Part shown: positions 7,863 through 34,416 of the stretch, piece after piece
How positions within the stretch are numbered: the first letter of the stretch is position 1
Layout of the letters: the number at the start of each line of letters is the position of its first letter
NCBI GenBank assembly: GCA_021791495.1
Contig: JAJYWN010000011.1
Coordinates: 1,015 to 65,014 of the forward strand
Source of the DNA: Bacillota bacterium
GTDB lineage: Bacteria > Bacillota > Sulfobacillia > JAJYWN01
DNA: 64,000 bases
Direction of reading: 5' to 3'
Notes under the pieces: generated by a model
The model's input: the letters and a program-made list of their open reading frames with translations, nothing else
Databases searched by the model: none
Told to the model about the DNA's origin: nothing
Translations under genes and position numbers: made by a program

Positions 7863-9053
7863 CTAGCTTTGGGTATTGCGCCGTCCGCGCGCCGCCGCCC
7901 AGTCCCGCGCCAGACCGCTCAGGACCACGGGTAGGTAGGCCGCCGGACCCACGCCGGCGGCCCCCGACAGCAGCAGGACTTCCCTGATCTGGTCCAGGAA
8001 GCCGCGAAGGTAAACTTCCGCACCCCGGGGGCCGCCGGCGTCAAGGGCCCTCAAGAGGGGCGCGGCCACGGAGACAGCCTTGGCTCCCAAGGCGAAGGCT
8101 TTCACCGCATCCAGTCCGGAACGGATCCCGCCGCCGGCCACCACGTCTAGGCCGCTGCCGGCGACCTCCAGAAGAGAGATGGCCGTCGGGAGCCCCCAAC
8201 TGTAGTGCGCCGGCCGGTGTTCCGACTCCCTGCCCCCAGCCCGCCCGGCGGCTCCCCCGGTCTCCCCGCCCGGCGCCAGACGTCTGGCCGCGGCGCGGCG
8301 GCGTTCCACGTCGCGGAAATCTGTGCCGCCCGCTCCACCCACGTCGATGGCGGCCACGCCGGCTTCCTTCAAGCGGCGGGCGTGCTCCCGGGCGATGCCG
8401 GCCCCGACCTCCTTCACTATTACCGGGAAAGGCACCGCCGCGCAAACGCGCTCGATGGCCGCCAACCGTCCGCGGAAATCCCGGTCGCCTTCAGGCATGG
8501 CCAATTCCTGGGCGGCGTTCAGGTGGAGCTGCAGGGCATCGGCGTGCAGGACATCCGCCGCCCGTTTGGCGTCGTCAGGGGACGAACCGGCGGGCAGATT
8601 GGCAAAGATGATGCCGTGGGGGTTCTCATCCCGGACTACCGAGAAGGTTGCCAAGGCCTCCGGAGACTCACGGAGAATGGTCTGCGAACCAACGGCGATG
8701 GCCGCGCCGGCCAGCGCGGCGGCGCGCGATAAGGCCCGATTCGCCTCCAGGCCGCGGGCTGTGCCGCCGGTCATGGCGTTGACCACGACGGGTGTGGCCA
8801 AGCGCAGGCCGGCGACGGAAGTCGTCAAGTCAATGGAGGCCAGGTCCAATTCGGGCAGACAGTCAGGTATGAGGTGGACGTCACTGAAATGTGTCGACGG
8901 AAACGAGGACTCAGGCGCGGAAACAGCGCCAGCTTCACCCATGTCCTCAGGAGTCCTGAGTACCGCTTCGAGATGTTCGTCCTTTCTTCGGGCCCGCAGA
9001 CCTAGCTGCTGGTTTGGCGGCGGGTTTGGAGCCCGGCGCCCCGGCGCCATCAT
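7863..9053 (-). CDS. fni: type 2 isopentenyl-diphosphate delta-isomerase (FMN-dependent IDI-2)
   Basis: RKDEHL near the N-terminus, NAMTGG, IVKEVGAGI and GGTDF blocks as in B. subtilis Fni. The start is uncertain (Met at ~9053 or a later TTG/CTG). The 5' end overlaps the topA 3' end. There is a low-complexity insertion (AAARRLAPGGETGGAAGRAGGRESEH). Confidence 0.82.
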   Translation of the reverse strand: MMAPGRRAPNPPPNQQLGLRARRKDEHLEAVLRTPEDMGEAGAVSAPESSFPSTHFSDVHLIPDCLPELDLASIDLTTSVAGLRLATPVVVNAMTGGTARGLEANRALSRAAALAGAAIAVGSQTILRESPEALATFSVVRDENPHGIIFANLPAGSSPDDAKRAADVLHADALQLHLNAAQELAMPEGDRDFRGRLAAIERVCAAVPFPVIVKEVGAGIAREHARRLKEAGVAAIDVGGAGGTDFRDVERRRAAARRLAPGGETGGAAGRAGGRESEHRPAHYSWGLPTAISLLEVAGSGLDVVAGGGIRSGLDAVKAFALGAKAVSVAAPLLRALDAGGPRGAEVYLRGFLDQIREVLLLSGAAGVGPAAYLPVVLSGLARDWAAARGRRNTQS

Positions 9054-11235: not shown

Positions 11236-13593
11236 CTATTCGCCCTTGTCTTCGTCTTTTTTCTCTTCAGTCTGTGCCGGTTCGTTCTCCCCTTCGGCCT
11301 GGGGCTTCTCCCCGGCGGCCTCGGCGGTCTTGGCTTCCTTCGCTTCCTTGGCCTCTTTCGCCTCCGCCTTATGGCGGCCGTTCTGCTTCTCGGCCTCCAC
11401 GGCGGCTTTCTTCGATTCGGCCAGGATGGAACCGAAAACGTCTCCCAAGGTGACGCGGGACTCTTCGGTCTCGGTCGCCGCCATCACGGGCTCCTTCTCG
11501 CGCGGTTCACGACGGCGCCGGCCACCGCCGGCCGCCGGTGCGGGCCGTTCTTCGCGCGGTGTTTCGCTGGCCTCGCGGATCGACAGGCTGATGCGGTGGT
11601 CTTTCGAGTTCACGGAGAGGACCCGCGCCTTCACTGTCTCTCCCACGGTGACCACATCGGCCGGCTTCTCCACCCTCCGGTCGGCCAACTGCGAGATATG
11701 GACCAAGCCGTCGATTCCCGGCTCCAACTCCACGAAAGCTCCGAAGGGGGCCAGGCGGACCACTTTTCCCTCGACCACGGTGCCTTCACGGTAACTCTCG
11801 GCGGCCTTGGACCACGGGTCCGGCTGGATCTGCTTGTAACCAAGGGAGATGCGGTCTTTTTCCTTATCAAGGCGCAGGACGATGACGTCAATCTCCTGGC
11901 CTTCCTTCAGGACCTCCGACGGGTGATTCACTCTGCCCCAGGACAGCTCGGAGACATGAAGGAGCCCGTCCACGCCGCCCAGGTCGACGAAGGCGCCGAA
12001 ATCAGTGAGGCGCTTGACCACGCCGTGGCGGACTTGGTTTTCGGCCAGTTCGGCCCAGGTGCTATCCCGCTTGGACTTGGCCTCTTCCTCCAGGGCAATC
12101 TTCCTGGAAAGGATCACCTGGTTCTTCGCCCGGTCCAGCTCGATGATCTTGACCCGAACTTCCTGGCCCACGAACTTGGCCAAGTCTTTCACAAAACCGC
12201 GATCCACGTGAGAGGCTGGGAGGAAACCGCGAAGGCCCACGTTCACGATGAGCCCGCCCTTGACCTCGCTGACCACAGGAGCGGTCAGAACTTCGCCCTT
12301 CTCGAAGGACTCCTTGACGCGCTTCCAACCCACTTCCTCGTCGGCGCGCCTCTTAGATAGGATGAGGTTGCCTTCCTGGGTATCGATGCGCTTCACATAG
12401 ACGTCTATCTCATCGCCGACCTGGACCAGTTGCCTCAGGTCCGCGCTGTCGCGACCGAAATCCGACGCCGGGATGACGCCCTCGGACTTATATCCCACAT
12501 CGACGAGGACTTGGTTGTCGTCCACCGACACGACCTTGCCGCGCACAATCTCGCCGGGCTTCAGGTCTTTCATGGCCGAGGCCATGTCCTCTTCTTCCCC
12601 TGTCGCCTGGCTTTCCTGCGGTTCCGCGTCAGCGGGGGCCGCTTCCTGTGCCGCAGGCGCTTTCTCCTGCTCTTGCTCTGTGGTGCTTTCGGGCTGCTGG
12701 TCTTTCTCTTCCTTTTCGTCGATGGCCGACATCTTCACTCGAACCTCCTCGATACTGCTGGCGGGCGTTGACGCGCCCGCCAGAAGGCCAACCCGGGCCT
12801 TTCCGGTAAACCAAGCTGGATCCAATTCGGTTGTGTTTTCTATGTGATAAGTAGGAATACCTTCTTCCCTGGCGATGGATGCCAATTGGCGGGTGTTCGC
12901 GCTGTTTTTTCCGCCCAGGACTAGAATGACGTCGCATCTCCTAGCCAATTCGCGTGCTTCTTGCTGGCGCTGGGAGGTCACGGCGCAAAGGGTGTTCACC
13001 TGCTCTACCTTGGCTCCGCCCTGGGCGAGGACCCGAGCCACCTCGCGGACGGTCTCTGGTCTCTGGGTCGTTTGGGCCACCAAAGTGACGGGCCCCGATA
13101 GCCCCAGATCCTTCGCCTCACCCGCATTCCGGACCACGAAGACACAGCCGCGGGAGGCCGACGCCACCTCCGACGCGTGTCCCAGCACCCCTTTGATCTC
13201 GGTGTGCCCGGGGTCCCCCACGATGACCGTGTCCCGGCCCTGGGCCACGCTCTCACTGGATTTCTCCTGTAGCCGCCGCACCAATGGGCATGTGGCGTCG
13301 ACGATTTCGTAACCCAGCGCGGCGGCGCGGCGGTAGACCTCGGGAGTGGCGCCGTGCGAAGGGATGACGAGGATGGCTCCGGGAGACGGCGGCAACTGGT
13401 CGAGGTCCGTGACGGTGCGGGCTCCCGAAGCGGCCAGCTCCCGTTCGACCTCCGGGTTATGGACCAGGGGGCCAAAGACAAAGACCGGCCCTCCCCGGCC
13501 CAGTGTCTGACGGGCCTTTTCCACCGCGTCCCGCACACCCGTACAGAAGCCCGCGTGGCGGGCGACTTCCACGTCAATCATGCGGTCCCTCAT
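11236..13593 (-). CDS. ispH: bifunctional 4-hydroxy-3-methylbut-2-enyl diphosphate reductase (IspH/LytB) fused to ribosomal protein S1 repeats
   Basis: N-terminal ~290 aa is IspH-like (GFCTGVRDAV, three conserved Cys regions). It is followed by four S1 domains and an acidic/Lys-rich tail (KEAKEAKEAK). The fusion is known in Clostridia. Confidence 0.9.
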   Translation of the reverse strand: MRDRMIDVEVARHAGFCTGVRDAVEKARQTLGRGGPVFVFGPLVHNPEVERELAASGARTVTDLDQLPPSPGAILVIPSHGATPEVYRRAAALGYEIVDATCPLVRRLQEKSSESVAQGRDTVIVGDPGHTEIKGVLGHASEVASASRGCVFVVRNAGEAKDLGLSGPVTLVAQTTQRPETVREVARVLAQGGAKVEQVNTLCAVTSQRQQEARELARRCDVILVLGGKNSANTRQLASIAREEGIPTYHIENTTELDPAWFTGKARVGLLAGASTPASSIEEVRVKMSAIDEKEEKDQQPESTTEQEQEKAPAAQEAAPADAEPQESQATGEEEDMASAMKDLKPGEIVRGKVVSVDDNQVLVDVGYKSEGVIPASDFGRDSADLRQLVQVGDEIDVYVKRIDTQEGNLILSKRRADEEVGWKRVKESFEKGEVLTAPVVSEVKGGLIVNVGLRGFLPASHVDRGFVKDLAKFVGQEVRVKIIELDRAKNQVILSRKIALEEEAKSKRDSTWAELAENQVRHGVVKRLTDFGAFVDLGGVDGLLHVSELSWGRVNHPSEVLKEGQEIDVIVLRLDKEKDRISLGYKQIQPDPWSKAAESYREGTVVEGKVVRLAPFGAFVELEPGIDGLVHISQLADRRVEKPADVVTVGETVKARVLSVNSKDHRISLSIREASETPREERPAPAAGGGRRRREPREKEPVMAATETEESRVTLGDVFGSILAESKKAAVEAEKQNGRHKAEAKEAKEAKEAKTAEAAGEKPQAEGENEPAQTEEKKDEDKGE

Positions 13594-22227: not shown

Positions 22228-22339
22228 CTCCGGAAAATGATCGAGCCCCGGCCTGTACGGTCCGGGGCTTGCTTGCTCTGGCTGGAGCGGCCCGTTAGAA
22301 AGCCGCCCGCCGCACCCCCCTTTCCGACGAAGGTCAAGT

Positions 22340-22520
22340 GTGCTTCCCGAAACGGGCAGGTCTCCTGGCTTCCGTTCTTCCTCCCCGCGCCTTCCCGCCG
22401 GCTGGGCCGGCAGTGGCTAGAGCGGTTCGTCGCGGTTACAGTGGCGGGACCGCGCCGGCTTAGGACCGCGCTCTTCGCGCCAAACGGTCCTCACCGGACT
22501 TCCCTATTATCCCCGCCCCC
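22340..22520 (-). promoter_or_regulatory. cobalamin (B12) riboswitch upstream of btuFCD
   Basis: Minus strand reads AUAAUAGGGAAGUCCGGUGAGGACC ... GCCACUGUAA ... GCCACUGCC ... GGGAAGG ... AGCCAGGAGACCUGCCC. The last segment matches the B12 box (compare E. coli btuB AGCCCGAAGACCUGCC). Position is 5' of the binding-protein gene. Confidence 0.8.
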
Positions 22521-22588
22521 TTCACTAGGGGCGGGGCACCCGTTTCCTTAGAATAACGCTATTCGGTTTTCACTATCCAGTATAGCGG

Positions 22589-23946: not shown

Positions 23947-24798
23947 CGGCGAGGAACGGCGCCGCGGCCGCGGGGAAGCAGGGGCGGCACGGGACGCCCG
24001 GCCACTTCTCGCGGTGGCACCGGGCACAGCCCGAGGGACAGCCCGAGGGACAGCCGCTCCACCCCTAGGTCCGCCGCCGGTCGCCCACCGCCTTAACGCA
24101 TCGGCTTCCTCCTGCCGCAGGTAGCGCCACTGCCCGGGAGTAAGGCCTCCCAGAGCCAGGTTGCCGATGCGTGTCCGGACCAGGTTTCGTACCTCGTGCC
24201 CCACCGCCTCCATCATCCGGCGGACCTGCCGGTTCCGACCTTCATGGATGACGATTTCAAGGAGAGCGTCACCGCCCACCTGGCCCACTGTGCGCACCCG
24301 GGCCGGTGCCGTCAGGCCGTCCTCCAGCGTCACGCCGCTGGAAAGGGTGCGGAGAGCCTGCGGGCCGGGAGTGCCGGACACGTGACAGAGGTAGTACTTG
24401 GGGATCTCGTGCCTGGGATGCATCATCGTGTGGGCGAAATCCCCGTCGTTCGTCAGGAGAATCAGACCGCTGGTGAGGAAGTCCAGACGTCCCACAGGGT
24501 AGACCCGTTCCTTGACTCCTGTGACCAAGTCCATCACTGTGGGGCGTCCCTGGGGGTCGCTGACCGTGGTGACGTATCCCGCAGGTTTATGAAGGGCGAC
24601 GTAAAGGCGTTCCCCGATGTGGGTCAGGGGCCGCCCGTCCACTTCAATGTGGTCTTTGTCCGGATCCGCTTTGGTGCCCAGTTCCGTTACGACCGCACCG
24701 TTAACCTTGATCCGCCCCGCCAAGAGCATTAGCTCAGCCTTGCGGCGGGAAGCCACGCCGTGTGCGGATAGGATTTTCTGCAACCGGTCCTTAGCCAA
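23926..24798 (-). CDS. rluB: 23S rRNA pseudouridine synthase RluB (S4 domain + RsuA-family catalytic domain) with Arg-rich tail
   Basis: S4 domain (RLQKILSAHGVASRRKAELMLLAGRIKVNG), catalytic GRLDFLTSGLILLTNDG and HEGRNRQVRRMME. Likely TTG start at 24798 preceded by AAAAGGGGG; the first 35 ORF-track aa are probably untranslated. Confidence 0.85.
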   Translation of the reverse strand: MAKDRLQKILSAHGVASRRKAELMLLAGRIKVNGAVVTELGTKADPDKDHIEVDGRPLTHIGERLYVALHKPAGYVTTVSDPQGRPTVMDLVTGVKERVYPVGRLDFLTSGLILLTNDGDFAHTMMHPRHEIPKYYLCHVSGTPGPQALRTLSSGVTLEDGLTAPARVRTVGQVGGDALLEIVIHEGRNRQVRRMMEAVGHEVRNLVRTRIGNLALGGLTPGQWRYLRQEEADALRRWATGGGPRGGAAVPRAVPRAVPGATARSGRASRAAPASPRPRRRSSPLMGRGK

Positions 24799-24945: not shown

Positions 24946-25950
24946 TCAACCGCCCCGGAACTCGCCCCGCATGCGGCGCCAGTCGTCCGCGCCCAGGTCG
25001 GCCTTGCAGGTGCGTATCGGCTCGCCGTCGGAGGTGAACAGGAGACAGCTCCCGCACACACCTTCGCCGCAGCACAGGGCGCGGTTGTTGGTGAAAACCA
25101 TCGGCGCGCGGAGGCCGACACGCTCCATGGTCTGGCCTACCCGGTGGTGGAGCCAGTCGGCCCCGCACGACACGACCAGTCCCGGAGCGGTCTCGCGTAT
25201 CAGGTTCTCGATGTTCAGTCCCCGGTCCGCGGCGTCTCCGGGAAGCGGCGGGTCCAACCTTCCCACCAGCACCCGGGCTCCCGTCGCCCTGGTCTCGGCC
25301 AGGAAGAGTGGCGCGCCGGCTCGGGCGGGGTCGATGACCATGGTGATCTCGGCCTCGGTGGGAGCGACATATCTGGCGACATTCAAGGCCGCTCCCTGCC
25401 CCGGGCCGCGCGCCAGGATGAGGACACGGGTACCGCGGGCAATGTCCAGCGAGCGGCGTCCGAAAAGGCCGTTCCAATAGGGACCGCGGACGTCGACACG
25501 GGCGGCCTCGGCAATGGAACGGGTCTTCGGCCCCAGGGCTTCGATGAGCGCGGTCAGTGCCAGGCGGTCACCCGTGATCTCTGTCTCCAACAGACTGACC
25601 GGGGCGTAAAAGGCCTGCGGATAGCCGCTCTTCTTCAAGAAGACGAAGGTGCCTGGCGCGGACCAGCTCTCGGCGGTCAGACGGTGGGTGGCGATGGTGA
25701 TGAGGACGCTGTCCGGGGCCAGTTCGCGGCGGGCCGTCACCGTGCCGGCCCTTTCCTGGCGGCCGGGCGGCGGGTCCCCGGTGGGGCGGTCCAATTGGTA
25801 CACGCACACACCGCACCACTGGCAATCGCAGAAATCGCGCCCCTGGAACTGCGAGCAGAGGACACAGTCTCCCGTAGCCGCAAGGTAGCAGGGGCAATAG
25901 ATCGAACCGGCATCGGCGCACGGAAAGCTTTTCTGGTGTGTGATCTGCAA
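24946..25950 (-). CDS. PyrK-like FAD/NAD(P)-binding oxidoreductase with C-terminal [2Fe-2S] motif and N-terminal 10-Cys domain
   Basis: FAD beta-barrel (PGTFVFLK), NAD-binding LILARGPGQGAAL, C-terminal CCGEGVCGSC...C as in PyrK/AsrB. The N-terminus is CADAGSIYCPCYLAATGDCVLCSQFQGRDFCDCQWCGVC. TTG start at 25950 with GGAGG 8 nt upstream. Confidence 0.7.
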   Translation of the reverse strand: MQITHQKSFPCADAGSIYCPCYLAATGDCVLCSQFQGRDFCDCQWCGVCVYQLDRPTGDPPPGRQERAGTVTARRELAPDSVLITIATHRLTAESWSAPGTFVFLKKSGYPQAFYAPVSLLETEITGDRLALTALIEALGPKTRSIAEAARVDVRGPYWNGLFGRRSLDIARGTRVLILARGPGQGAALNVARYVAPTEAEITMVIDPARAGAPLFLAETRATGARVLVGRLDPPLPGDAADRGLNIENLIRETAPGLVVSCGADWLHHRVGQTMERVGLRAPMVFTNNRALCCGEGVCGSCLLFTSDGEPIRTCKADLGADDWRRMRGEFRGG

Positions 25951-26007
25951 CTGTCCCGCCTCCCCACCCACACTATGATGGGGAGGGGGGTTGTGACACT
26001 CGTCCTG

Positions 26008-27129
26008 CTAGACCTGGGTCAACCGTTGGAAGAGACCGGCCGGTCCCGACCGGACGACGTCGAAGACGGGACATCCTGTCCGCCGCCCCAATTCATCGAC
26101 GAGGGAGGCATATTCAGCGTCAGCCATGTGGCCGGCTAGATAGTAACGTCCGCGGTGGTCGTACGTCGGGCGGTAGGGGCTGGTGGTGATCGCGGACAGG
26201 CGGACCGCCGACGACAGGAAAACCCTCCAGCCAGCGGCTTTTAGCCGAAGGAGCGCCGCGACGGTGTCCGGGGCGGGGCCGGCGACGGCCAGTGCCGCGG
26301 CCGAAGGGAAGACCATCTCCCCCGGGGCCATGTGACTTTCCACGAGGTATGCGGCCAGGGCGCGGAGAGCTCTGGCTCCAACGAGGGACGGGAAGACCAG
26401 ACGGAACGGCCGGCGGCGGGACACGGGCGGAGGCGCCGCCGTCAAGAAAGCCGCCAGGTCCGCCGCGGCCGTCTCGTCCGTTAGAACGGCCGGTCCCGGC
26501 AGTTCGGCCACAGGAAGCGGGGCGGCCCCTTCTCCCCATCCAACCCCACCTCTCCGTCCTCCATCCTCCGCTCCCGGCAAGTTGAAGAGGAAGGCCAGAG
26601 CCCGCGCTTCGTCCAGGATCACCTGGACGCTCTCATCACGGGCCGCTCCGGTCGAGAGGACCATCTGGTCCACGACCGACAAGGGCGCAAGGCGGTTGAC
26701 CGCGCCATCAACCAGAGCCAGGTCGGTACCCTCGGCCCGCAATGAATCGAGGACCAGCCGCAGTTCCGCCGCGACCAGCGGCCCGGCCAGGACCGTCAGG
26801 CCGGGGTGCAGGACGCGGTAGATGGCGATGGGCCCCAAAGGGGACCGGAAAGGCGTGACCGAAAGAAGCTCGAGTGTGGCCAGGACCGCGGGAGTGGCGG
26901 TCGGTGGCGCGCCGGCCTCGAAGGGGATGGCCGTCGCCACCAGCGCTCCCGCGGGCACGTACACGCGGGGTTTGGGCAACCCGGTGACGTTGTCCTTGGC
27001 TTCCCCGTCCATGCCGATGCTGGTGAGCGCCAGACGCAGCCCCGCCCGGGTCGCTTCGCCGGCGACCGCCGTCAGGGCCGTGGTCTTGCCCGTGTTCTTG
27101 GCCGTTCCGGCGAAGCCGATGCTCTTCAC
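26008..27129 (-). CDS. P-loop ATPase of the DTBS/CobQ/CobA-like class (Walker A GTAKNTGKTT), function unknown
   Basis: GTG start with GGAGA RBS. IGFAGTAKNTGKTTAL resembles BioD/CobB/CobQ (GTxxxxGKT) and CobA (FTGNGKGKTTAA). LALVDGAVNRL resembles the hhhEGAGG block. About 370 aa, Ala/Pro-rich. Confidence 0.55.
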   Translation of the reverse strand: MKSIGFAGTAKNTGKTTALTAVAGEATRAGLRLALTSIGMDGEAKDNVTGLPKPRVYVPAGALVATAIPFEAGAPPTATPAVLATLELLSVTPFRSPLGPIAIYRVLHPGLTVLAGPLVAAELRLVLDSLRAEGTDLALVDGAVNRLAPLSVVDQMVLSTGAARDESVQVILDEARALAFLFNLPGAEDGGRRGGVGWGEGAAPLPVAELPGPAVLTDETAAADLAAFLTAAPPPVSRRRPFRLVFPSLVGARALRALAAYLVESHMAPGEMVFPSAAALAVAGPAPDTVAALLRLKAAGWRVFLSSAVRLSAITTSPYRPTYDHRGRYYLAGHMADAEYASLVDELGRRTGCPVFDVVRSGPAGLFQRLTQV

Positions 27130-27138
27130 AGCCGTCTC

Positions 27139-28998
27139 CTACCGCGAGCGGGCCTTCACCGTGCCGCGCCCGGCGCGTCCGGGGTAGACACCTTCCTCCG
27201 GAGAGCCGAGAAGCCCGGCGTAGATGGCCTCCGGCAGGACGCCGACGCGCGCCACCCGCGTCAAGACGTCTTCGACACCGGCCACCATCTCCGACGCCCA
27301 TCGGGTGGCCGCGGCTGTTGGCTCGATGCGGGACTGGCCGAAGAACCGGAAAGCCTCGGCGGCCGCCGTCAAGGTGTCCAACCGCGCCGCCGCGGTGATG
27401 GCGCCGCCGCTATAGGCCTCATCGGCGGAGGCGATGGTCACCGCCTCGACTCCCAGGCAAGCCGCCAGGGCGGCATGCAGGGCGGTGGACACCGACGACT
27501 GGACGCGGTCTTCCGTCTGGGTCAGGAAACCCACCGGCGCCCCGGGCCAGATGGGGGCATCGATGATCTGCCGGAGGGCCATGACTTTGGCGGCGTTGAA
27601 GTCGACGTAGTTATCGGCCATCTGACCACCGAGCATCACTTCCGGAGAGTAACAGAACAGGGGCTGCAGGACCGGCCGCCCGCCGAGGGCGACGCCCATG
27701 GCGACGGTGGCCAACATCCCAGCCATGGCTTTGTGCGCCGGGACCCCCGACAGCTCCTCATTTGTCACGACGTCGAAAGGAAGACCGTAGCGTGCCGCGT
27801 AGGTCATGGCGGCGTACGCGTCCACCGTCAGCCTGGACGGTTCTGTGCCGGCTCCCAAGGAACCGTAGGCGATATTGATCTTGGTCAGGTCCGCCCCGGC
27901 CACGGCCGCCAAGAGCACCGTCTCGGGCGTGTTCAGACCACGGTGGGCCCTTACCTGCCAGAGGAGGTCGGGCCCGGCGGCCCGCCGCAGGGCCTGGAGG
28001 TTCTCCAAGGTCACCACCGTGCCATCATGTTCGTGAGACAAGAGACCGCTGGGCAGCCCCTCTGTCCGCGCCGCCCAGGAGGGGTCGAAGTGGACCACTC
28101 CCCCCGCTCCCCACTGGCGTACCGCCTGGATATGGGCGGCATCCATGAGCGGGCATCCAGTGCCGTACTGGACGAAAACGGTGGGCTTACCCTCTGGTCC
28201 GGACAGGGGTGACCGCTCCGGCGCGGCGTAAGCCCGCTCCGGCGAAAGAAAGCTCTCTTCGTGCGCCGTGAGGTAGCGGGTATGTTCGGGGGCGCTTTTC
28301 TCCTTGGCAGCCAAGCGGACCGGCTCATCGCAAAGCTCGAGGTACAGTTCCCGGTTCCGTCCCGCTTGGGCGGGGTCGTCCAGGATGGCCCGGCGCAGTT
28401 CCGCGCGCTCCACACCGGGGCTGGTCCGCCCCGCGGCCCAGGACAGGGTCTGAGACGCCACCGTGTGGGCCAGTTCGCCGATGGCCTCGTGCCGGAACTG
28501 GTAGCCAAACCCAGCCGTGAGGTCGCGGCGCCGCGGGGGCGCCTGCCCGGCGGCGGTACCGGACAGCGGGCGCGGGGACTTGCCATCGATATACAGGAGG
28601 ACCATCTCGGGGGTGGTGCCGGGGCCGAAGCAGGCGTCAAACCCAAGTTCGGCCGCGAGTCCGTCGCGCACAGCCATGCCGCCGATCACCAGTTTCGTGG
28701 CGGGACGCAGTCCCGCGGCCTCCATCATGTCGGCCAACCGTCCCAGGAGTTCCGCGGTCCCATATCCCACGGTACGCCCGATCAAGGTGAACTCAGGACG
28801 GTATTCGGAGGCTGCCCGGACGACTTCTTCCAGGGTACGGTCGGGAGGCAAGAGCATGGTCTGATGGCCGGCGGCGTTCAGCGCCCGCCGGATGACTTTG
28901 AGACCGATATCGTGGACGGGGTCGAGCGGGACCAGCAGGACCCGGCGCGGTCTATCGGCCAGATAGGATGGGTTTACTGTGGAATAGGGCTGAGTCAC
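27139..28998 (-). CDS. adenosylcobalamin-dependent mutase homologue: N-terminal B12-binding domain (DxHxxG) fused to a GlmE-like large domain
   Basis: N-terminus aligns with the glutamate mutase S subunit: VLLVPLDPVHDIGLKV ... KLVIGGMAV ... GFDACFGPGTTPE (compare GlmS IVLGVIGSDCHAVGNKI ... LFVGGNIV ... GFDRVYPPGTSPE). C-terminal blocks QVRAHRGLNTPET and INIAYGS recall GlmE (QARHGTPD, ISYNVPY). Likely GTG start at 28998 (GGAGGAGG 10 nt upstream) forming GTGA with the upstream ORF stop. Confidence 0.72.
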   Translation of the reverse strand: MTQPYSTVNPSYLADRPRRVLLVPLDPVHDIGLKVIRRALNAAGHQTMLLPPDRTLEEVVRAASEYRPEFTLIGRTVGYGTAELLGRLADMMEAAGLRPATKLVIGGMAVRDGLAAELGFDACFGPGTTPEMVLLYIDGKSPRPLSGTAAGQAPPRRRDLTAGFGYQFRHEAIGELAHTVASQTLSWAAGRTSPGVERAELRRAILDDPAQAGRNRELYLELCDEPVRLAAKEKSAPEHTRYLTAHEESFLSPERAYAAPERSPLSGPEGKPTVFVQYGTGCPLMDAAHIQAVRQWGAGGVVHFDPSWAARTEGLPSGLLSHEHDGTVVTLENLQALRRAAGPDLLWQVRAHRGLNTPETVLLAAVAGADLTKINIAYGSLGAGTEPSRLTVDAYAAMTYAARYGLPFDVVTNEELSGVPAHKAMAGMLATVAMGVALGGRPVLQPLFCYSPEVMLGGQMADNYVDFNAAKVMALRQIIDAPIWPGAPVGFLTQTEDRVQSSVSTALHAALAACLGVEAVTIASADEAYSGGAITAAARLDTLTAAAEAFRFFGQSRIEPTAAATRWASEMVAGVEDVLTRVARVGVLPEAIYAGLLGSPEEGVYPGRAGRGTVKARSR

Positions 28999-29315
28999 CT
29001 TGCGCCCGCCTCCTCCAACCAAGGATAGGGGACGCCGGGCCGGTTGAGGTACGCACGGGCCCGCACCCTTGCCACTCCCCCGCGGTGCTCAGCGGAAACG
29101 ACGTCGGCGTCGGCGAACCCAAGGCCGCGCAAAAGCTGCAGAATGAGCCTCCTTGCTTCGGCCTCGTCCCGGCAGAAAAGGCACGTTTCGACATCTATAG
29201 CATCCAACACGGCGGCCGCGGCCGCCGCGGCCCCGTCCGGCAGGCCGTCGCGCTCGACCGGGGTGGCCACCGGTGCGTCCGCCCTTGGCAAATCCCTTCT
29301 GGTGTGTCCGTCCAT
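28995..29315 (-). CDS. small hypothetical protein translationally coupled to the mutase gene
   Basis: ATG at 29315 is preceded by AAAGAGGG. Its stop TGA overlaps the mutase GTG start (GTGA). 106 aa with an Ala-run and a CLFC motif. Confidence 0.5.
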   Translation of the reverse strand: MDGHTRRDLPRADAPVATPVERDGLPDGAAAAAAAVLDAIDVETCLFCRDEAEARRLILQLLRGLGFADADVVSAEHRGGVARVRARAYLNRPGVPYPWLEEAGAR

Positions 29316-29358
29316 GGCTGACCCTCTTTCACTCATCACTGATGAGTCGCTACCGGCG

Positions 29359-29415
29359 AAAAAAAAGGACCGCCCTTAGAGTCTGGCCGACCCCTTCGGA
29401 TCGCCGGTCCTTTTT
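29359..29415. terminator. bidirectional intrinsic terminator (A8-GGACCG...CGGTCC-T5) at the 3' end of gntR
   Basis: Plus strand: AAAAAAAAGGACCG-[32 nt incl. small CCGA/TCGG hairpin]-CGGTCCTTTTT. On the minus strand the stem is followed by 8 U. The stem overlaps the last codons of the GntR gene. Confidence 0.6.
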
Positions 29416-30182
29416 CCGCCGCCGTCTTCGCCGTCTCCGTCTCCGCCGGCCACGTCCAACTGGTCATAGTACTTCCGAACGTCGGCAATGAGGTTCTCGA
29501 TGTGCTTCACCATGGCCTGCTCCGCCGCTATTTCGTCCTGCTGGCGGATGGCCTCCATGATCTTCGCGTGGTCGGCCACGATGGTGCTGTGGAGCGTCTT
29601 TCTGATGAACTCCAGGGCCGGCGTCAGTTGGCTATCCTGCCTGATCAGTTCATTGGCTGCCAGGAGGACGCGGTTGCCGGCCGCCTGGGCGATGACGCGG
29701 TGGAACAGAGCGTCGTCTTCGGTGGCGACCTCGCCCGACTGAACGTGCACGGCCTGGCTGGCCAGGGCCTGTGCCAGGTCGGCCAGTTGGGCGTCGGTCC
29801 GGTGGTGGGCAGCCAGTCTGGCTGTTTCTCTTTCGATGGCGCGACGCGCGACCAACACCTCCAGGAGTTCCTCGCGGGTCCGGGCGCGCAGGGCGCCCAG
29901 GAACTCGGAACCCGAAGAGGCCAGACGGCGCTCGCTTTCCAGCTCCGTCAGCCGGTTCTTCCCCTGAGCCGTCAGGCGCCGACCACGGAACCCAAGGCGC
30001 TCGGTGAGGCCTTCCCGGTCCAGGTCCCGCAGTATGCGGCCGACCGTGGCCTCGCTCAACTCCAGGCCCGACGTCCGGAGGTGTTCGGCCAGCGCCCAAG
30101 ACCCCAAGAGGCCGTCGCCCGAAGCATTGATCGCCCGCAAGATCTCGTAGACTCCCGTATCCCGCCCTGCCAGCATGTCCAC
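29376..30182 (-). CDS. GntR-family transcriptional regulator (FadR-like, FCD effector domain)
   Basis: N-terminal winged HTH (EATVGRILRDLDREGLTERLGFRGRRL), C-terminal all-helical FCD-like domain, Gly/Asp-rich tail. Confidence 0.8.
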   Translation of the reverse strand: MDMLAGRDTGVYEILRAINASGDGLLGSWALAEHLRTSGLELSEATVGRILRDLDREGLTERLGFRGRRLTAQGKNRLTELESERRLASSGSEFLGALRARTREELLEVLVARRAIERETARLAAHHRTDAQLADLAQALASQAVHVQSGEVATEDDALFHRVIAQAAGNRVLLAANELIRQDSQLTPALEFIRKTLHSTIVADHAKIMEAIRQQDEIAAEQAMVKHIENLIADVRKYYDQLDVAGGDGDGEDGGGKRTGDPKGSARL

Positions 30183-30396
30183 CCCCCGGTCGGGCGAAAA
30201 CCGCCCGGTACTATGGCCGCCGTTGCTCCCGCCCCAGCCAATCCAGGACGAAAAACAAAGAGATTAGGAAAAGCAGAGCCCCCAGATCGCGCAACGCTCC
30301 CTGGGAACCAGCGGAAACCGGCGACCAACCCATTCTCAGGACCTCCCCGGTCGAAACGCGTAACAATATATGCGCTCCCGACCGGAGAGGTACGAT

Positions 30397-30706
30397 CTTG
30401 ATGGGGGCCGCACCCTTCGCCGCCCGAACGCTTCGTCGGGCACAGCCCGACTGCGCTGGCGGCTGCGGGACCCCGGCCCCCATACCCCCTTCTTCTTGAT
30501 GGGGGCCGCACGAGCCTGCTGAGGGCCGCACCCTTCGCCGCCCGAACGCTTCGTCGGGCACAGCCCGACTGCGCTGGCGGCTGCGGGACCCCGGCCCCCA
30601 TACCCCCTTCTTCTTGATGGGGGCCGCACCCTTCGCCGCCCGAACGCTTCGTCGGGCACAGCCCGACTGCGCTGGCGGCTGCGGGACCCCGGCCCCCATA
30701 CCCCCT
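30397..30706. repeat. tandem array of three ~98-bp highly structured GC-rich repeat units (one unit with a 20-bp internal insertion)
   Basis: Unit: TGATGGGGGCCGCACCCTTCGCCGCCCGAACGCTTCGTCGGGCACAGCCCGACTGCGCTGGCGGCTGCGGGACCCCGGCCCCCATACCCCCTTCTTCT. Terminal inverted repeat ATGGGGGCCG/CGGCCCCCAT with internal hairpins CCCGA-ACGCTTCG-TCGGG and GTCGGG-CACAG-CCCGAC. Located in the 3' UTR of the SelA-like gene, upstream of gntR. Confidence 0.85.
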
Positions 30707-30714
30707 TCCTAAAT

Positions 30715-32175
30715 CTAGAGCAATCCAGCGTGCTTGGCGATGATGTTCATCAACGCGACCAGGCCTTTCAGCGCCAGACGCATCTTGTCTTCGTTCAGAG
30801 AACCGTCGGGCTCTGAAGTGCCCATGCCTGGTGAGATGAAGATGTTACCGTCATAGGCGATGGTCGGAACGATGCCCATCTGGGCGCACCCGGTCTGCAA
30901 CAAGTGCGACCCGGCGTACATGTCCTCGATGGAGAAGATCGGGAAGCCCATCCCCGAGCCCTTCCAGGTGTTCTCGTAGTTGACTTCCACGGTGGTGGAG
31001 TTATAGGACTTGGTCACCACCAGACCATCCCGGACCACCTTCGGCAACCCCTTGAGTTCCTCCTGAACCATGTTGTAGAGCCGGTCCACGGGGTCGGTCA
31101 GGATCCGCGGGTTGTCCCGGAGTACTTTCAGGGCCACCACCTGAGTGAGGAGGGCTTCTTTCCCGGGGTCCTGAGTGACGTAGGCCGCCTTACCGTAAGA
31201 AGCCAAGGTCCCCCACCGATCACCGTGCATCCCCAAAGCGCGGCGGATGGTGACCATCACTTCCTCGCGCCCGATAATGAGGCCGCTAGTGGCCGAGCCG
31301 GTGGCCTTGTCCATACTGTAGACGATGACGTCGGCGTTGATCTTCCGCGGATCGGTCCCGACGAAGGGGAGCCCCCAGGCGTTATCGACGATGTAGGGGA
31401 CGTTATAGTCGTGGGCCAGCTCGCCGATGTACGCCTGGAGGGCGGGCGCGCCGTCCTCGTTCTTTACCCCGTAACCGTAGCCCGGCGTGTCGTAACCGAG
31501 GGAGGCGAAACCGGTGACCAGGTCGGCGTGGACGTCGGCTGTAGCGGCCAGGCGCTCGATACTCTCCTCCGGGTCCACGTCCACCAGCATGGGGACGGGC
31601 CAGTATTTGATGCCGTGGTTGTCGTAACGGGCCCCGGCCAGCGGAACCACGACGACGTCCAGGTTATTCTGGCGTTTCCCGTAGAACCCCATTTCGCCCG
31701 CGGTGGCGCCGCGGTCGGCCAGGAAGTCCTTGTACTTCGGAGGGAAGGGGCGTCCGTAGCCGGCCTGATGGTGCATGTGCTTCTCGTAAGGGGCGATGTA
31801 GCGCGCCCGATAGTTATCGCCGCGTCCGGTGAACGGCGGCGTGCAAAGGGTGTCGAAAGAGACCCACAGGCCCGCCTCGCAGGTATTCAGGGGCGCGGCG
31901 TCCCACTCGTCACCGTAGACGTCCTTCACGATCTCCCGGACCTGCTCCACCAGAGTGGCGAGAGGAATCACCTCCTGGGCGCCCTTCTCGCTGGCGGCCA
32001 GGATATCGTCGCGCAACGGGGCCGGGTTGCCGGAGATGGCGCCGGTCAGGCCAAACTTGCCCTTCAGGCCCGGGGCGATGCCCAGTTCCTCCGCCGCCTT
32101 TCGGGCTTCCGCATAGATCTGCGCCGTGTTCGCCTGCAGGTGTTTATACAGTTGGTAGCGGTACTTGAAAGCCAT
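30715..32175 (-). CDS. SelA/DgaE-like fold-type-I PLP-dependent enzyme (putative ammonia-lyase/transferase)
   Basis: Lys-containing block VYSMDKATGSATSGLIIGREEVM parallels SelA [22 protein letters not shown]. 486 aa; good RBS GAGAGGAGAA. Confidence 0.6.
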   Translation of the reverse strand: MAFKYRYQLYKHLQANTAQIYAEARKAAEELGIAPGLKGKFGLTGAISGNPAPLRDDILAASEKGAQEVIPLATLVEQVREIVKDVYGDEWDAAPLNTCEAGLWVSFDTLCTPPFTGRGDNYRARYIAPYEKHMHHQAGYGRPFPPKYKDFLADRGATAGEMGFYGKRQNNLDVVVVPLAGARYDNHGIKYWPVPMLVDVDPEESIERLAATADVHADLVTGFASLGYDTPGYGYGVKNEDGAPALQAYIGELAHDYNVPYIVDNAWGLPFVGTDPRKINADVIVYSMDKATGSATSGLIIGREEVMVTIRRALGMHGDRWGTLASYGKAAYVTQDPGKEALLTQVVALKVLRDNPRILTDPVDRLYNMVQEELKGLPKVVRDGLVVTKSYNSTTVEVNYENTWKGSGMGFPIFSIEDMYAGSHLLQTGCAQMGIVPTIAYDGNIFISPGMGTSEPDGSLNEDKMRLALKGLVALMNIIAKHAGLL

Positions 32176-32243
32176 AGCCCATTCTCCTCTCTGCCTTGGC
32201 CCGGCCCGGCTCCCTACCGACCATTCCGATCCGGGCTTGCACT

Positions 32244-32708
32244 CTAACTACGGACGGCCACGATCATCTCTACTTCACAAGCGGTGTCCAAGGGCAACTC
32301 GTTGGAGCCCACGGCGGCCCGGGCGTGCTTCCCCTTGTCCCCGAAAGCGGCGACGAGGAGTTCGGAGGCGCCGTTGATGACCTTGGGTTGCGCGTTGAAG
32401 CCGTCGGCACTGTTCACAAAGCCGGTAACCTTGACGACGCGTTCCACCCTATCGAGGTCGCCGATCTCCGCCTTCAGCACCGCCAGGCAGTTGAGGGCGC
32501 AGACGCGCGCCGCCTCATATCCCTGTTCCACGGTGAGATCGCTGCCGATCTTGCCTTTGTACTTCAACTCACCCGCCACCGTGGCGATCTGGCCGGCCGT
32601 AAAGACGAGGTTTCCGACGCGAACGGCCGGTACGTAGGCCGCCAAGGCTTTCGGAGCGTCCGGAACGGTCAAACCCAACTTCTCCAAGTTCTTTTCTACT
32701 TGCGACAT
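32244..32708 (-). CDS. ridA: RidA/YjgF-family reactive-intermediate (enamine/imine) deaminase
   Basis: 154 aa with YjgF/chorismate-mutase-like fold blocks (VRVGNLVFTAGQIA, ARAAVGSNELPLDTACEVEMIVAV). Confidence 0.85.
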   Translation of the reverse strand: MSQVEKNLEKLGLTVPDAPKALAAYVPAVRVGNLVFTAGQIATVAGELKYKGKIGSDLTVEQGYEAARVCALNCLAVLKAEIGDLDRVERVVKVTGFVNSADGFNAQPKVINGASELLVAAFGDKGKHARAAVGSNELPLDTACEVEMIVAVRS

Positions 32709-32737
32709 GGTTTTCTAGGGGTCCCCTCCTGTCTTAG

Positions 32738-33181
32738 CTATAGCCCGCTGATGGTCACTGGATCTTCCACCCGCAGGCCCAACTCCTCGCCGGACAGGCG
32801 CTCACCGGTCCGGATCACGATGTTCAGATGGTTCGGGGCGTGAGTCTCGTCGAACCCCACCACGGTGCCGGCGGTCTTGCCACCGATGTGGACGGCGTCC
32901 CCGCACACCACCACGCCCCCCCGGACGAACTCGACGAAGCCTAAGTAGTGGATCCGATCGACCGTGCTGCCCGGAGCGGCATCATCTTCGGAAGTCGCGA
33001 TGAACTCGTGTACATCCCCCGTTTTCACCGTCCGCGAGATGGTCTGGATGAGGTGCAGGCCGCGATCCTCCATGCTCCCCCGGAGTACAGCCACCAACTT
33101 GCCGTTAAGTGGTCGCTTAGCTGCGTACGGGCTCTTCGTGAAGGCGCGGCGGCCGTATGGGTCGTTGGCCGACTCCACCAT
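32738..33181 (-). CDS. hypothetical small protein, possibly PTS-IIA(glucitol)-like fold
   Basis: 147 aa; segments GDAVHIGGKTAGTVVGFDE and NHLNIVIRTGE are reminiscent of SrlB-like proteins. Weak call. Confidence 0.4.
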   Translation of the reverse strand: MVESANDPYGRRAFTKSPYAAKRPLNGKLVAVLRGSMEDRGLHLIQTISRTVKTGDVHEFIATSEDDAAPGSTVDRIHYLGFVEFVRGGVVVCGDAVHIGGKTAGTVVGFDETHAPNHLNIVIRTGERLSGEELGLRVEDPVTISGL

Positions 33182-33280
33182 GGTCTTGGTCTGTCCTCCC
33201 CTGAATCCTACTCATCAGTGATGAGCGCCATGATGGACATTCTGCCCATCCTAGGCGATTCCTTCTACCGAAAAGGCCTT

Positions 33281-33829
33281 CTAGCCAAAAATCCATCCGC
33301 AAACAAGAATCGCCGCGATAAACCCGACCGCATCACCGATGAGCCCGACGGGCAACGCGTATCGCGGGTCCCGCACCCCTACGGACCCGAAGTACAAGGT
33401 GAGGACGAAGAAGGTGGTGTCGGAACTCCCCTGCACCACGGCGGCGAGCCGCGAAACGAAGGCGTCGGCTCCGTGAGTCTTCATGACTTCACCTACCAGA
33501 CCCAGGGTGGCAGATCCCGACAAAGGGCGGAGGAGGACGACGGGGATGACGTCGGCGGGGATGTGGAACAAGGTGGTGAAAGGCGAGATGGCGCGCGCCA
33601 GGAGGTCGAATAACCCGGAGGTGCGGAACATTCCGACGGCCATGAAGATGGCCAGGACAAAGGGGAAGATGCGCAGGGCGATGGCTAGGCCTTCCTCGGC
33701 GCCCTCGATGAAGGTTTCGTAGACTTTCACACCTTTCAGGTATCCGTACAAGGGAATGCCCGCCAGGATGACCGGGAGAAGCCATTGCGCCAATAGGTTG
33801 ATGACGGCCATCGCTTGCCCCTCCCTCAC
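33281..33829 (-). CDS. spmB: spore maturation protein B (nucleoside-recognition/Gate-domain membrane protein)
   Basis: 182 aa with 4-5 TM helices; same size and order as B. subtilis spmA-spmB. The alternative reading is a YjiG-like transporter half. Confidence 0.65.
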   Translation of the reverse strand: MREGQAMAVINLLAQWLLPVILAGIPLYGYLKGVKVYETFIEGAEEGLAIALRIFPFVLAIFMAVGMFRTSGLFDLLARAISPFTTLFHIPADVIPVVLLRPLSGSATLGLVGEVMKTHGADAFVSRLAAVVQGSSDTTFFVLTLYFGSVGVRDPRYALPVGLIGDAVGFIAAILVCGWIFG

Positions 33830-34416
33830 TTCCTCCGCCGGGCGTGCCGGCGGGCCATGGCACTATTGGCCATCAAGGTGGCGGCCGTGCCACAGAGGCT
33901 GGCGAAAACCGAAGGGCCCACAATGTCCATGGGATTGGCGGCACCCGAAGCCAGACGCAGGGCGATCAAGGAGGCCGGCACCAAGGTGACAGACTGCGTC
34001 ACCAAGGCCATGAAAGTGATCATCGACTTCGAGGCCACCGCCTTGTCCTCGGCCAGTTCAGACAGGCCGGCCATGGCCTTCAACCCGAAGGGGGTCGCGG
34101 CGTTGCCTAGACCGAGGAGGTTCGCGCTGACGTTCAGGACGATGGCCCCCAGCACCGGGTGATCGCGTGGTATCTCCGGGAAGAGCCGCGCCGTCAAAGG
34201 TGCCAGAGCGCGGGCGATGAGATGGACCAGGCCCGACTTCTCGGCGATCTTCATCAGCCCCATCCACAGGCAGAGCACGCCGGTGAGGCCCAACACCAGG
34301 TCCACGGCCGAGCGGCCCGAGGCCATGGCCGCGGCCGTCACTTCATTGACCTGGCCACGCGCGCCGCCGTAAATCACCGCCGACACGATGAGGAAAAGCC
34401 AAATCACGTTTAACAA
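33826..34416 (-). CDS. spmA: spore maturation protein A (nucleoside-recognition/Gate-domain membrane protein)
   Basis: 196 aa membrane protein (B. subtilis SpmA is 196 aa); overlaps spmB by 4 nt. Confidence 0.65.
   Translation of the reverse strand: MLNVIWLFLIVSAVIYGGARGQVNEVTAAAMASGRSAVDLVLGLTGVLCLWMGLMKIAEKSGLVHLIARALAPLTARLFPEIPRDHPVLGAIVLNVSANLLGLGNAATPFGLKAMAGLSELAEDKAVASKSMITFMALVTQSVTLVPASLIALRLASGAANPMDIVGPSVFASLCGTAATLMANSAMARRHARRRK

Follow-up and report, generated by a model that had tools for sequence, protein, structure and literature searches.

Three head-to-tail copies of a palindromic unit lie between the gene for a PLP enzyme and that for a transcription regulator in a putative amino-acid-catabolism operon, at positions 30401-30708 of the window (the whole 64-kb stretch of DNA analysed here), and together they probably constitute a lineage-specific intercistronic minisatellite, an array of the VNTR type whose unit is a long GC-rich palindrome. 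The tandem array itself is confirmed and lies far beyond chance. Its copy number, its absence from related species and its likeness to known repeat systems are set out below together with the readings that compete with this one.

Architecture of the tandem array

The three copies are 98, 118 and at least 92 bp long and differ only by a 20-nt insert in the middle one; each unit is composed of an 83-nt imperfect palindrome and a 15-nt linker (ACCCCCTTCTTCTTG on the plus strand, CAAGAAGAAGGGGGT on the sense strand). TRF returns a period of 118 at 30405-30629 (100% matches, score 450) and a period of 98 at 30523-30708 (100% matches, score 372), and blastn with the 98-nt unit aligns to 30401-30498, 30523-30616 and 30617-30708 at 100% identity in each case, in agreement with the three tandem 98-bp copies of the preliminary description. 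Head-to-tail repetition of exact or near-exact units of about 10 to more than 100 bp is one mark of a VNTR locus, and the TRF periods of 98 and 118 display it here. Because the three copies are 100% identical, their amplification is recent. Outside the array, the blastn search of the 64-kb window with the unit yields nothing longer than a 14-nt chance match.

The copy nearest the regulator gene (30401-30498, minus strand, 98 bp) consists of a palindrome at 30401-30483 and a linker at 30484-30498. The middle copy (30499-30616, minus strand, 118 bp) carries the insert at 30512-30531 (GAGCCTGCTGAGGGCCGCAC), which had been described as a 20-bp partial duplication; the 20-nt length stands, but only 9 nt (GGGCCGCAC) duplicate adjacent sequence, and the other 11 nt are new, with no other occurrence in the window. 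The copy nearest the PLP-enzyme gene (30617-30708, minus strand) comprises the full 83-nt palindrome at 30617-30699 and the first 9 nt of the linker. It had been taken for a truncated copy, yet its hairpin is complete and only the last 6 linker nucleotides differ, because this is the edge of the array.

Both genes beside the array are on the minus strand, and its placement behind a PLP-enzyme gene and before a GntR/FCD regulator gene holds. Upstream in the sense direction is the gene for a fold-type-I PLP enzyme of 486 aa (30715-32175, minus strand), whose stop codon is 6 nt from the end of the array and 15 nt from the first hairpin. The name SelA-like, given to this gene earlier, has only a distant similarity behind it: the protein has weak Aminotran_5 and distant DgaE/SelA-related matches, the latter at 30.8 bits against a cut-off of 385, and all of its matches fall below curated cut-offs. 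Its closest named relative is from Caldinitratiruptor microaerophilus (78% aa identity). Downstream is the gene for an FCD-domain (GntR/FadR-type) transcription regulator (29376-30182, minus strand), as had been noted, but the array is not directly upstream of it; a 40-codon gene that had been overlooked stands in between.

Predicted fold of the unit

The ends of the palindrome, ATGGGGGCCG and CGGCCCCCAT, have six perfect occurrences in the window, every one inside the array, and pair to give the perfect 10-bp terminal stems that had been claimed for the unit. The two separate hairpins thought to be enclosed by this stem do not appear; the predicted fold is instead one continuous rod-like imperfect hairpin with helices of 10, 3, 6, 3-5 and 7 bp, internal loops between them and an apical loop of 3 nt. 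Folded as RNA, a single unit reaches -55.2 kcal/mol (z = -5.05) for the plus strand and -61.2 kcal/mol (z = -4.18) for the minus strand, and none of 200 shuffles is as stable as the real sequence, while the same unit folded as DNA gives -29.4 kcal/mol (z = -4.22) and -31.6 kcal/mol (z = -3.62), respectively. The whole-array region has a z of -9.2 on the sense strand. The middle copy with its insert still folds, into a long hairpin with a small side stem, and neighbouring units can also pair through CGGCCCCCAT-15 nt-ATGGGGGCCG, which creates alternative structures. The sense strand of the array has no U-tract, which argues against classical terminator action, and a terminator scan finds no terminator-like site there; the reading of the units as classical terminators was accordingly dropped.

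Folds of this strength, some -61 kcal/mol per unit on the sense strand, would also suit a functional structured RNA, whether a repeated small RNA, as the preliminary description proposed, or a cis-regulatory leader or attenuator acting on the small gene and the regulator; the ability of adjacent units to pair and the position of the array directly upstream of a hairpin that sequesters a Shine-Dalgarno (SD) sequence point the same way. However, at Rfam gathering thresholds the array is unmatched, the sole match in the window being a cobalamin riboswitch elsewhere, and in E-value mode (E up to 10) the best hits in the array region are eukaryotic miRNA models at 18 bits and E 0.6, which is noise. 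The 98-bp unit contains neither a promoter-like nor a terminator-like signal and leaves no room for either, both strands fold about equally well, as those of a DNA palindrome would, and one-copy strains exist. The nearest relative, from which the element is absent, keeps the hairpin next to the array, the small gene and the regulator, so the conserved regulation needs no element. A functional RNA is thus decidedly improbable, and the small-RNA proposal in particular finds no backing. The palindrome could matter at the DNA level, through cruciform formation or protein binding, or not at all.

Copy number in near-identical genomes

A second mark of a VNTR locus is that copy number varies among close genomes. 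The ENA assembly ERZ27237183 has 0 mismatches to the window over 21.5 kb, yet carries one copy of the unit, and one copy is likewise present in GCA_027335225.1, with 1 mismatch in 9.1 kb (99.97-100% identical). The variation is thus 3 versus 1, with the proviso that the one-copy contigs could be assembler collapses. Three-copy and one-copy backgrounds are separated by 0 SNPs in 21 kb and by a length difference of 216 bp, and the one-copy allele is exactly the product expected if copies 1 and 3 had recombined.

That two further assemblies of this population have one copy, and that the 90-aa gene is called in three of the four large contigs with the locus, could be taken to mean that the three-copy array is an assembly artefact and that one copy is the true state. 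Several features of the array speak against this. Its internal junction, ACCCCCTTCTTCTTG, is one base off from the joined single-copy flanks, and since this base is present in neither flank, reads with the junction must exist; the middle copy, moreover, has its unique 11-nt insertion. The longest exact repeat within the array is 107 nt, below k = 141. Finally, the k = 31 Logan assembly of SRR13178629 includes a contig that matches the window without a mismatch over 11,050 nt and stops at position 30425. A break is predicted exactly there: with a tandem junction present, the 31-mer starting at 30396 would be the first to have two different left neighbours, and the 31-mer before it ends at 30425. 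This break counts as independent only if the window assembly came from other reads, and the same reads are possible. An artefact is therefore very improbable, and the array is probably real and variable in copy number.

The site without the element in related species

The nearest sampled relative (Logan contigs from SRR22746128/119/112; 76-83% nucleotide identity in the flanking genes) has an empty site. There the PLP-gene stop codon is followed, in order, by 27 unrelated nt, a conserved hairpin (hairpin 2, described below), the small ORF and the regulator. The palindrome has no similarity to the empty-site sequence of this relative beyond that of shuffled controls, and an origin of the palindrome by template switching from ancestral local sequence was rejected, the alignment score being equal to the shuffled mean. 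In more distant relatives (74-78% aa identity) merely 27-87 bp are found behind the PLP gene. The element was therefore acquired recently and in this lineage only; genomes that otherwise agree fully carry different numbers of copies. A search with the regulator protein yields 100% identity and then at most 54%, with no species at intermediate distance, and for this reason no diverged copies of the unit are at hand.

Two side observations concern relatives. The three independent contigs from SRR22746128/119/112 all start at the same base, 147 nt before the PLP-gene stop codon, which suggests strain-variable or repeated sequence within the PLP gene of those samples. In a relative at 75% aa identity (L034, positions 11470-11498), the gap behind the PLP gene is GCCTCGAAAGAAGAAGGAGGAATATAC, followed by ATG, and represents an AAG-rich ribosome-binding site. 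It resembles the linker of the array on the sense strand (CAAGAAGAAGGGGGTATG), and judged by this resemblance the linker may derive from an ancestral ribosome-binding site.

Searches for further copies

The preliminary description had raised the possibility of a dispersed repeat family and proposed a BLASTN count of further copies; within the 64-kb window there are none, and the relative's site is empty. A pattern built from the terminal repeats (ATGGGGGCCG-N55-85-CGGCCCCCAT) was scanned against a collection with one genome per species (~186,000 genomes, 596 Gb), the JGI metagenomes and IMG/VR, with 29, 28 and 1 matches, respectively, all of which have interiors that are unrelated by blastn and by eye. 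These 58 matches are about the number expected by chance for 20 specified bases in collections so large. The present species is seemingly missing from the species-genome collection, since otherwise the pattern would have picked up its single-copy locus. An exact interior 34-mer of the unit has 0 matches in the JGI metagenomes, an exact interior 22-mer has 0 matches in viral contigs, and plasmid and phage collections hold nothing matching the unit. A word-indexed protein search with the six-frame translation of the unit gives nothing at E <= 1, but it carries no weight, since it also missed the product of the 90-aa ORF, with which 29 residues are identical (BLASTP, 57 bits). Within the reach of these searches, the evidence points to a unit confined to this locus and not to a dispersed family. 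A low-copy family dispersed elsewhere in the genome is an alternative to be set beside this, the copy search having covered the 64-kb window.

Comparison with known repeat systems

The array most resembles loci of the MIRU-VNTR type, which likewise repeat units of tens to about 100 bp exactly and head-to-tail between co-oriented genes, occur in one lineage only with a short gap in relatives, and differ in copy number among near-identical strains. Composite units with small internal insertions and spurious ORFs annotated across the repeats are also common to both, as is an effect on downstream expression, proposed or measured for such loci and proposed by inference for the array. The rnc-fpg1 intergenic VNTR (VNTR3239/ETR-F) of M. 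tuberculosis is lineage-specific and polymorphic, an ORF annotated in it is spurious, and downstream expression correlates with the length of the repeat (PMC2734929). The likeness has limits. MIRU form a family at ~41 loci in one genome, whereas the array is known from one locus; MIRU units are not long palindromes, whereas the unit of the array is an 83-nt palindrome; and the MIRU host is an actinobacterium, whereas that of the array is an uncultured GC-rich member of the Bacillota.

The REP/BIME elements of Enterobacteria and Pseudomonas share with the array GC-rich imperfect extragenic palindromes, often behind a stop codon in operons and sometimes clustered, as well as the way in which they are proposed to act, by an RNA hairpin stabilising the upstream mRNA or attenuating read-through, which is what we infer for the array. 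REPs are 20-40 bp palindromes with a 5-13 bp stem and a small loop, have an unpaired GTAG or CGTC tetranucleotide at one end, form dimers head-to-head or tail-to-tail, with head-to-tail dimers 'negligible', and have proposed roles in termination and mRNA stabilisation (PMC3733652). In contrast, the unit of the array is an 83-nt rod-like hairpin of several helices, its ends are ATGGGGGCCG and CGGCCCCCAT, and its sole CGTC is internal, with its GTC paired inside the apical stem. Units of REP clusters alternate in orientation, whereas all units of the array are head-to-tail. Dispersed REP copies number from tens to thousands, compared with one locus in the 64-kb window and none in the three pattern-scanned collections, and REPs are often linked to RAYT (IS200/IS605-type) transposases, of which there is none among the ~50 window proteins. 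The REP/BIME reading suggested in the preliminary description thus fails on size, orientation, tag and the absence of a second locus in the 64-kb window.

Bacterial MITEs are the other mobile class that invites comparison: they too are ~100 bp long and intergenic, have terminal inverted repeats, can fold into a long RNA hairpin if transcribed with their neighbours, and are present in some relatives but absent from others. Families such as Correia/NEMIS, RUP and ERIC have many dispersed copies, target-site duplications of defined form, and a parent IS whose ends match theirs. The unit of the array does possess terminal inverted repeats (10 bp, perfect), and AAG flanks each block of hairpin plus 6 nt, although the 27-nt empty site of the relative is unalignable. 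Dispersed copies and a parent IS were not found: within the window the terminal repeats occur only in the array, the genome, metagenome, viral, plasmid and phage collections gave no related sequence, and no matching IS or transposase was seen among the ~50 window proteins.

These comparisons bear on the possibility that the unit belongs to a dispersed mobile palindromic family, REP/BIME-like or MITE-like, which inserted here and then became self-adjacent or was duplicated. The perfect 10-bp terminal inverted repeats, the palindromic body, the intergenic location and the empty site in a related species are all as an insertion would predict, and the sense-strand AAG on both sides of each hairpin (…AAG GGGGT[H]C AAG…) is readable as a 3-bp target duplication. 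Yet comparison with the empty site does not show a clean insertion, since the flanking 27 nt are replaced and not duplicated, and neither a second locus in the 64 kb nor a transposase or RAYT among the ~50 window proteins accompanies the unit. With the terminal-repeat matches (29 + 28 + 1) all unrelated in their interiors, the interior 34-mer absent from the JGI metagenomes, plasmids and phages without a match, and size, order and missing tag unlike those of REPs, a dispersed mobile family is unlikely.

The array is not a CRISPR, in keeping with the earlier judgement, since the units abut via the identical 15-nt linker and there are no unique spacers. On inspection, an attC reading was discarded for lack of RYYYAAC/GTTRRRY cores, and a retron reading for lack of a nearby reverse transcriptase. 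By the tests that could be run, the array is not a member of REP/BIME, MITE, CRISPR or any Rfam family.

Reading frames across the array and the 40-codon gene

A spurious ORF of 162 aa (30211-30699, minus strand), whose exact product is not on record, crosses the array and measures 90 aa in the one-copy allele. In either allele it stays open and runs in frame into the 40-aa gene, the difference of 98 + 118 = 216 bp being 72 codons. The 90-aa version has been annotated as a gene in one assembly by a gene caller. These facts would be expected if the array were translated, with the ATG at each palindrome start, after AAGGGGGT, beginning an N-terminal extension of the small protein to 90 aa (one copy) or 162 aa (three copies). 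The composition and conservation of the ORF argue otherwise. GC3 is 0.72 across it (0.65 in the tail) versus 0.80-0.84 in neighbouring genes, and the unit is not a multiple of 3 in length, which puts the middle copy in a different frame. Between the SD-like run and the ATG there are 1-4 nt, compared with a spacing of 6-8 nt at the neighbouring genes inspected, and the ATG is buried in the 10-bp terminal stem. A phmmer comparison of the 162-aa ORF with 1.84 billion cluster representatives found a real relative for the 40-aa tail alone, which is how the species with the empty site came to light; the unit-encoded part was unmatched, and three other matches were of low complexity. In the relative, which lacks the extension, a good SD is located 7 nt before the 40-aa start, and the synonymous pattern of conservation starts only there. 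Judged on these sequence features, the 162-aa ORF is not coding over the array, and a translated array is scarcely credible. The ORFs over the array had been called artefactual on first reading, a verdict that GC3 and the unit length sustain for the repeats but not for the last 40 codons, which are a real gene.

This gene (30211-30333, minus strand), the 3' end of the spurious ORF, encodes a 40-aa product (MGWSPVSAGSQGALRDLGALLFLISLFFVLDWLGREQRRP) with one hydrophobic helix and no Pfam match. Compared with the relative, it has 19 synonymous and 5 non-synonymous codon differences, distributed 6/2/18 over the three codon positions, a pattern by which the ORF is recognised as a genuine, conserved small membrane-protein gene. 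Its SD, GGGGAGG, is 8 nt before the ATG. Hairpin 2 (30341-30391, minus strand), of 13-16 bp, begins 9 nt downstream of the array in the sense direction and is kept in the repeat-free relative; its 3' arm (CGACCGGGGAGGT) includes the SD of the 40-codon gene, which suggests translational control of the 40-aa protein by SD sequestration. The AT-rich loop of hairpin 2 (ATATATTGTTAC) has a GT..AC motif, which might double as an operator of the FadR/GntR type.

Proposed origin and effect of the array

For the lineage-specific minisatellite that we favour, the most coherent course of events would begin with the entry of the 83-nt imperfect palindrome into the gap between the PLP gene and the small ORF, after the split from the nearest sampled relative. 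Some strains would then have amplified the palindrome head-to-tail together with its 15-nt linker, while otherwise identical strains carry one copy, and copy number would change, most likely, by replication slippage or unequal recombination between identical units. Because it lies inside a string of same-strand genes, the array is probably co-transcribed, and each transcribed unit would fold to a rod-like hairpin of about -55 to -61 kcal/mol. Such hairpins would impede 3'-exonucleases and partly block read-through. This barrier would stabilise the mRNA of the upstream enzyme, lower or uncouple expression of the small protein and the regulator downstream, and grow stronger with more copies. By analogy, the array would work, if at all, like a REP-type RNA hairpin, and a transcript-stabilising or attenuating role appears to be its most plausible functional consequence. 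The array may equally be selectively neutral.

A bolder reading holds that the palindrome is the first known example of a new mobile or self-amplifying element, present in few copies in an uncultured Caldinitratiruptor-related lineage of Bacillota, and that its variable tandem copy number, as an RNA barrier of 1-3 hairpins, serves as a heritable, reversible 'dial' on expression of the SD-sequestered small membrane protein and of the operon's own FCD-family regulator; this we consider quite unlikely. Should the minisatellite reading be correct, the locus adds one more bacterial intergenic tandem repeat that changes faster than point mutations accumulate, and its variable length would be useful as a strain marker in metagenomes. 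Assemblers and gene callers are known to stumble over loci of this kind, and the deposited sequences already include a 90-aa 'protein' from this one. For the B12-mutase-like/PLP-enzyme catabolic operon, any regulatory effect would be modest in size and confined to the locus. Of greater use is a finding made along the way, that the region hides a genuine 40-aa membrane peptide gene whose ribosome-binding site is sequestered.

Genomic setting

The window has a G+C content of 64.5% and is ordinary core chromosome, with der, gpsA, topA, ispH-S1, cmk, murC-like, scpAB, trpS, Ku/LigD and sporulation genes; no transposase, integrase or RAYT is found among the ~50 window proteins scanned. The G+C content and the sporulation genes, taken with the Caldinitratiruptor microaerophilus match of the PLP enzyme, indicate an uncultured GC-rich member of the Bacillota. 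The array is embedded in a same-strand string with short gaps, in which two Gate-domain membrane proteins, a DUF6917 protein, a RidA-like protein and the PLP enzyme precede it and the regulator follows. Beyond the regulator, still on the minus strand, are genes for a 106-aa protein, a B12-binding mutase-like protein of 619-627 aa, a KamB-like reactivase subunit and a flavoprotein.

From the Gate-domain pair to the flavoprotein (24946-34416, minus strand), this string is a conserved, uncharacterised cluster whose NCBIfam matches are all far below cut-offs, and homologous clusters are found in Heliobacteria, relatives of Desulfotomaculum, Symbiobacteriaceae and Negativicutes; the cluster may represent an unknown B12-dependent aminomutase pathway. 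The cobalamin riboswitch of the window (22338-22558, minus strand; Rfam RF00174, 103.9 bits) sits a few kb from the B12-binding mutase-like genes, upstream of a Peripla_BP_2/FecCD/ABC-ATPase transporter operon that is presumably for B12 uptake.

Two further repeats were noted in the window. A perfect 16-bp inverted repeat at 7951-8041 (ACGCCGGCGGCCCCCG ... CGGGGGCCGCCGGCGT, 59-nt spacer) was discarded as a relative of the array, being unrelated and inside an FMN-dependent dehydrogenase-like coding region. At 24026-24055, in the 3' part of a pseudouridine-synthase gene, a perfect 12-nt tandem repeat (ACAGCCCGAGGG x2.5) overlaps a 14-nt chance match to the apical stem of the array unit.
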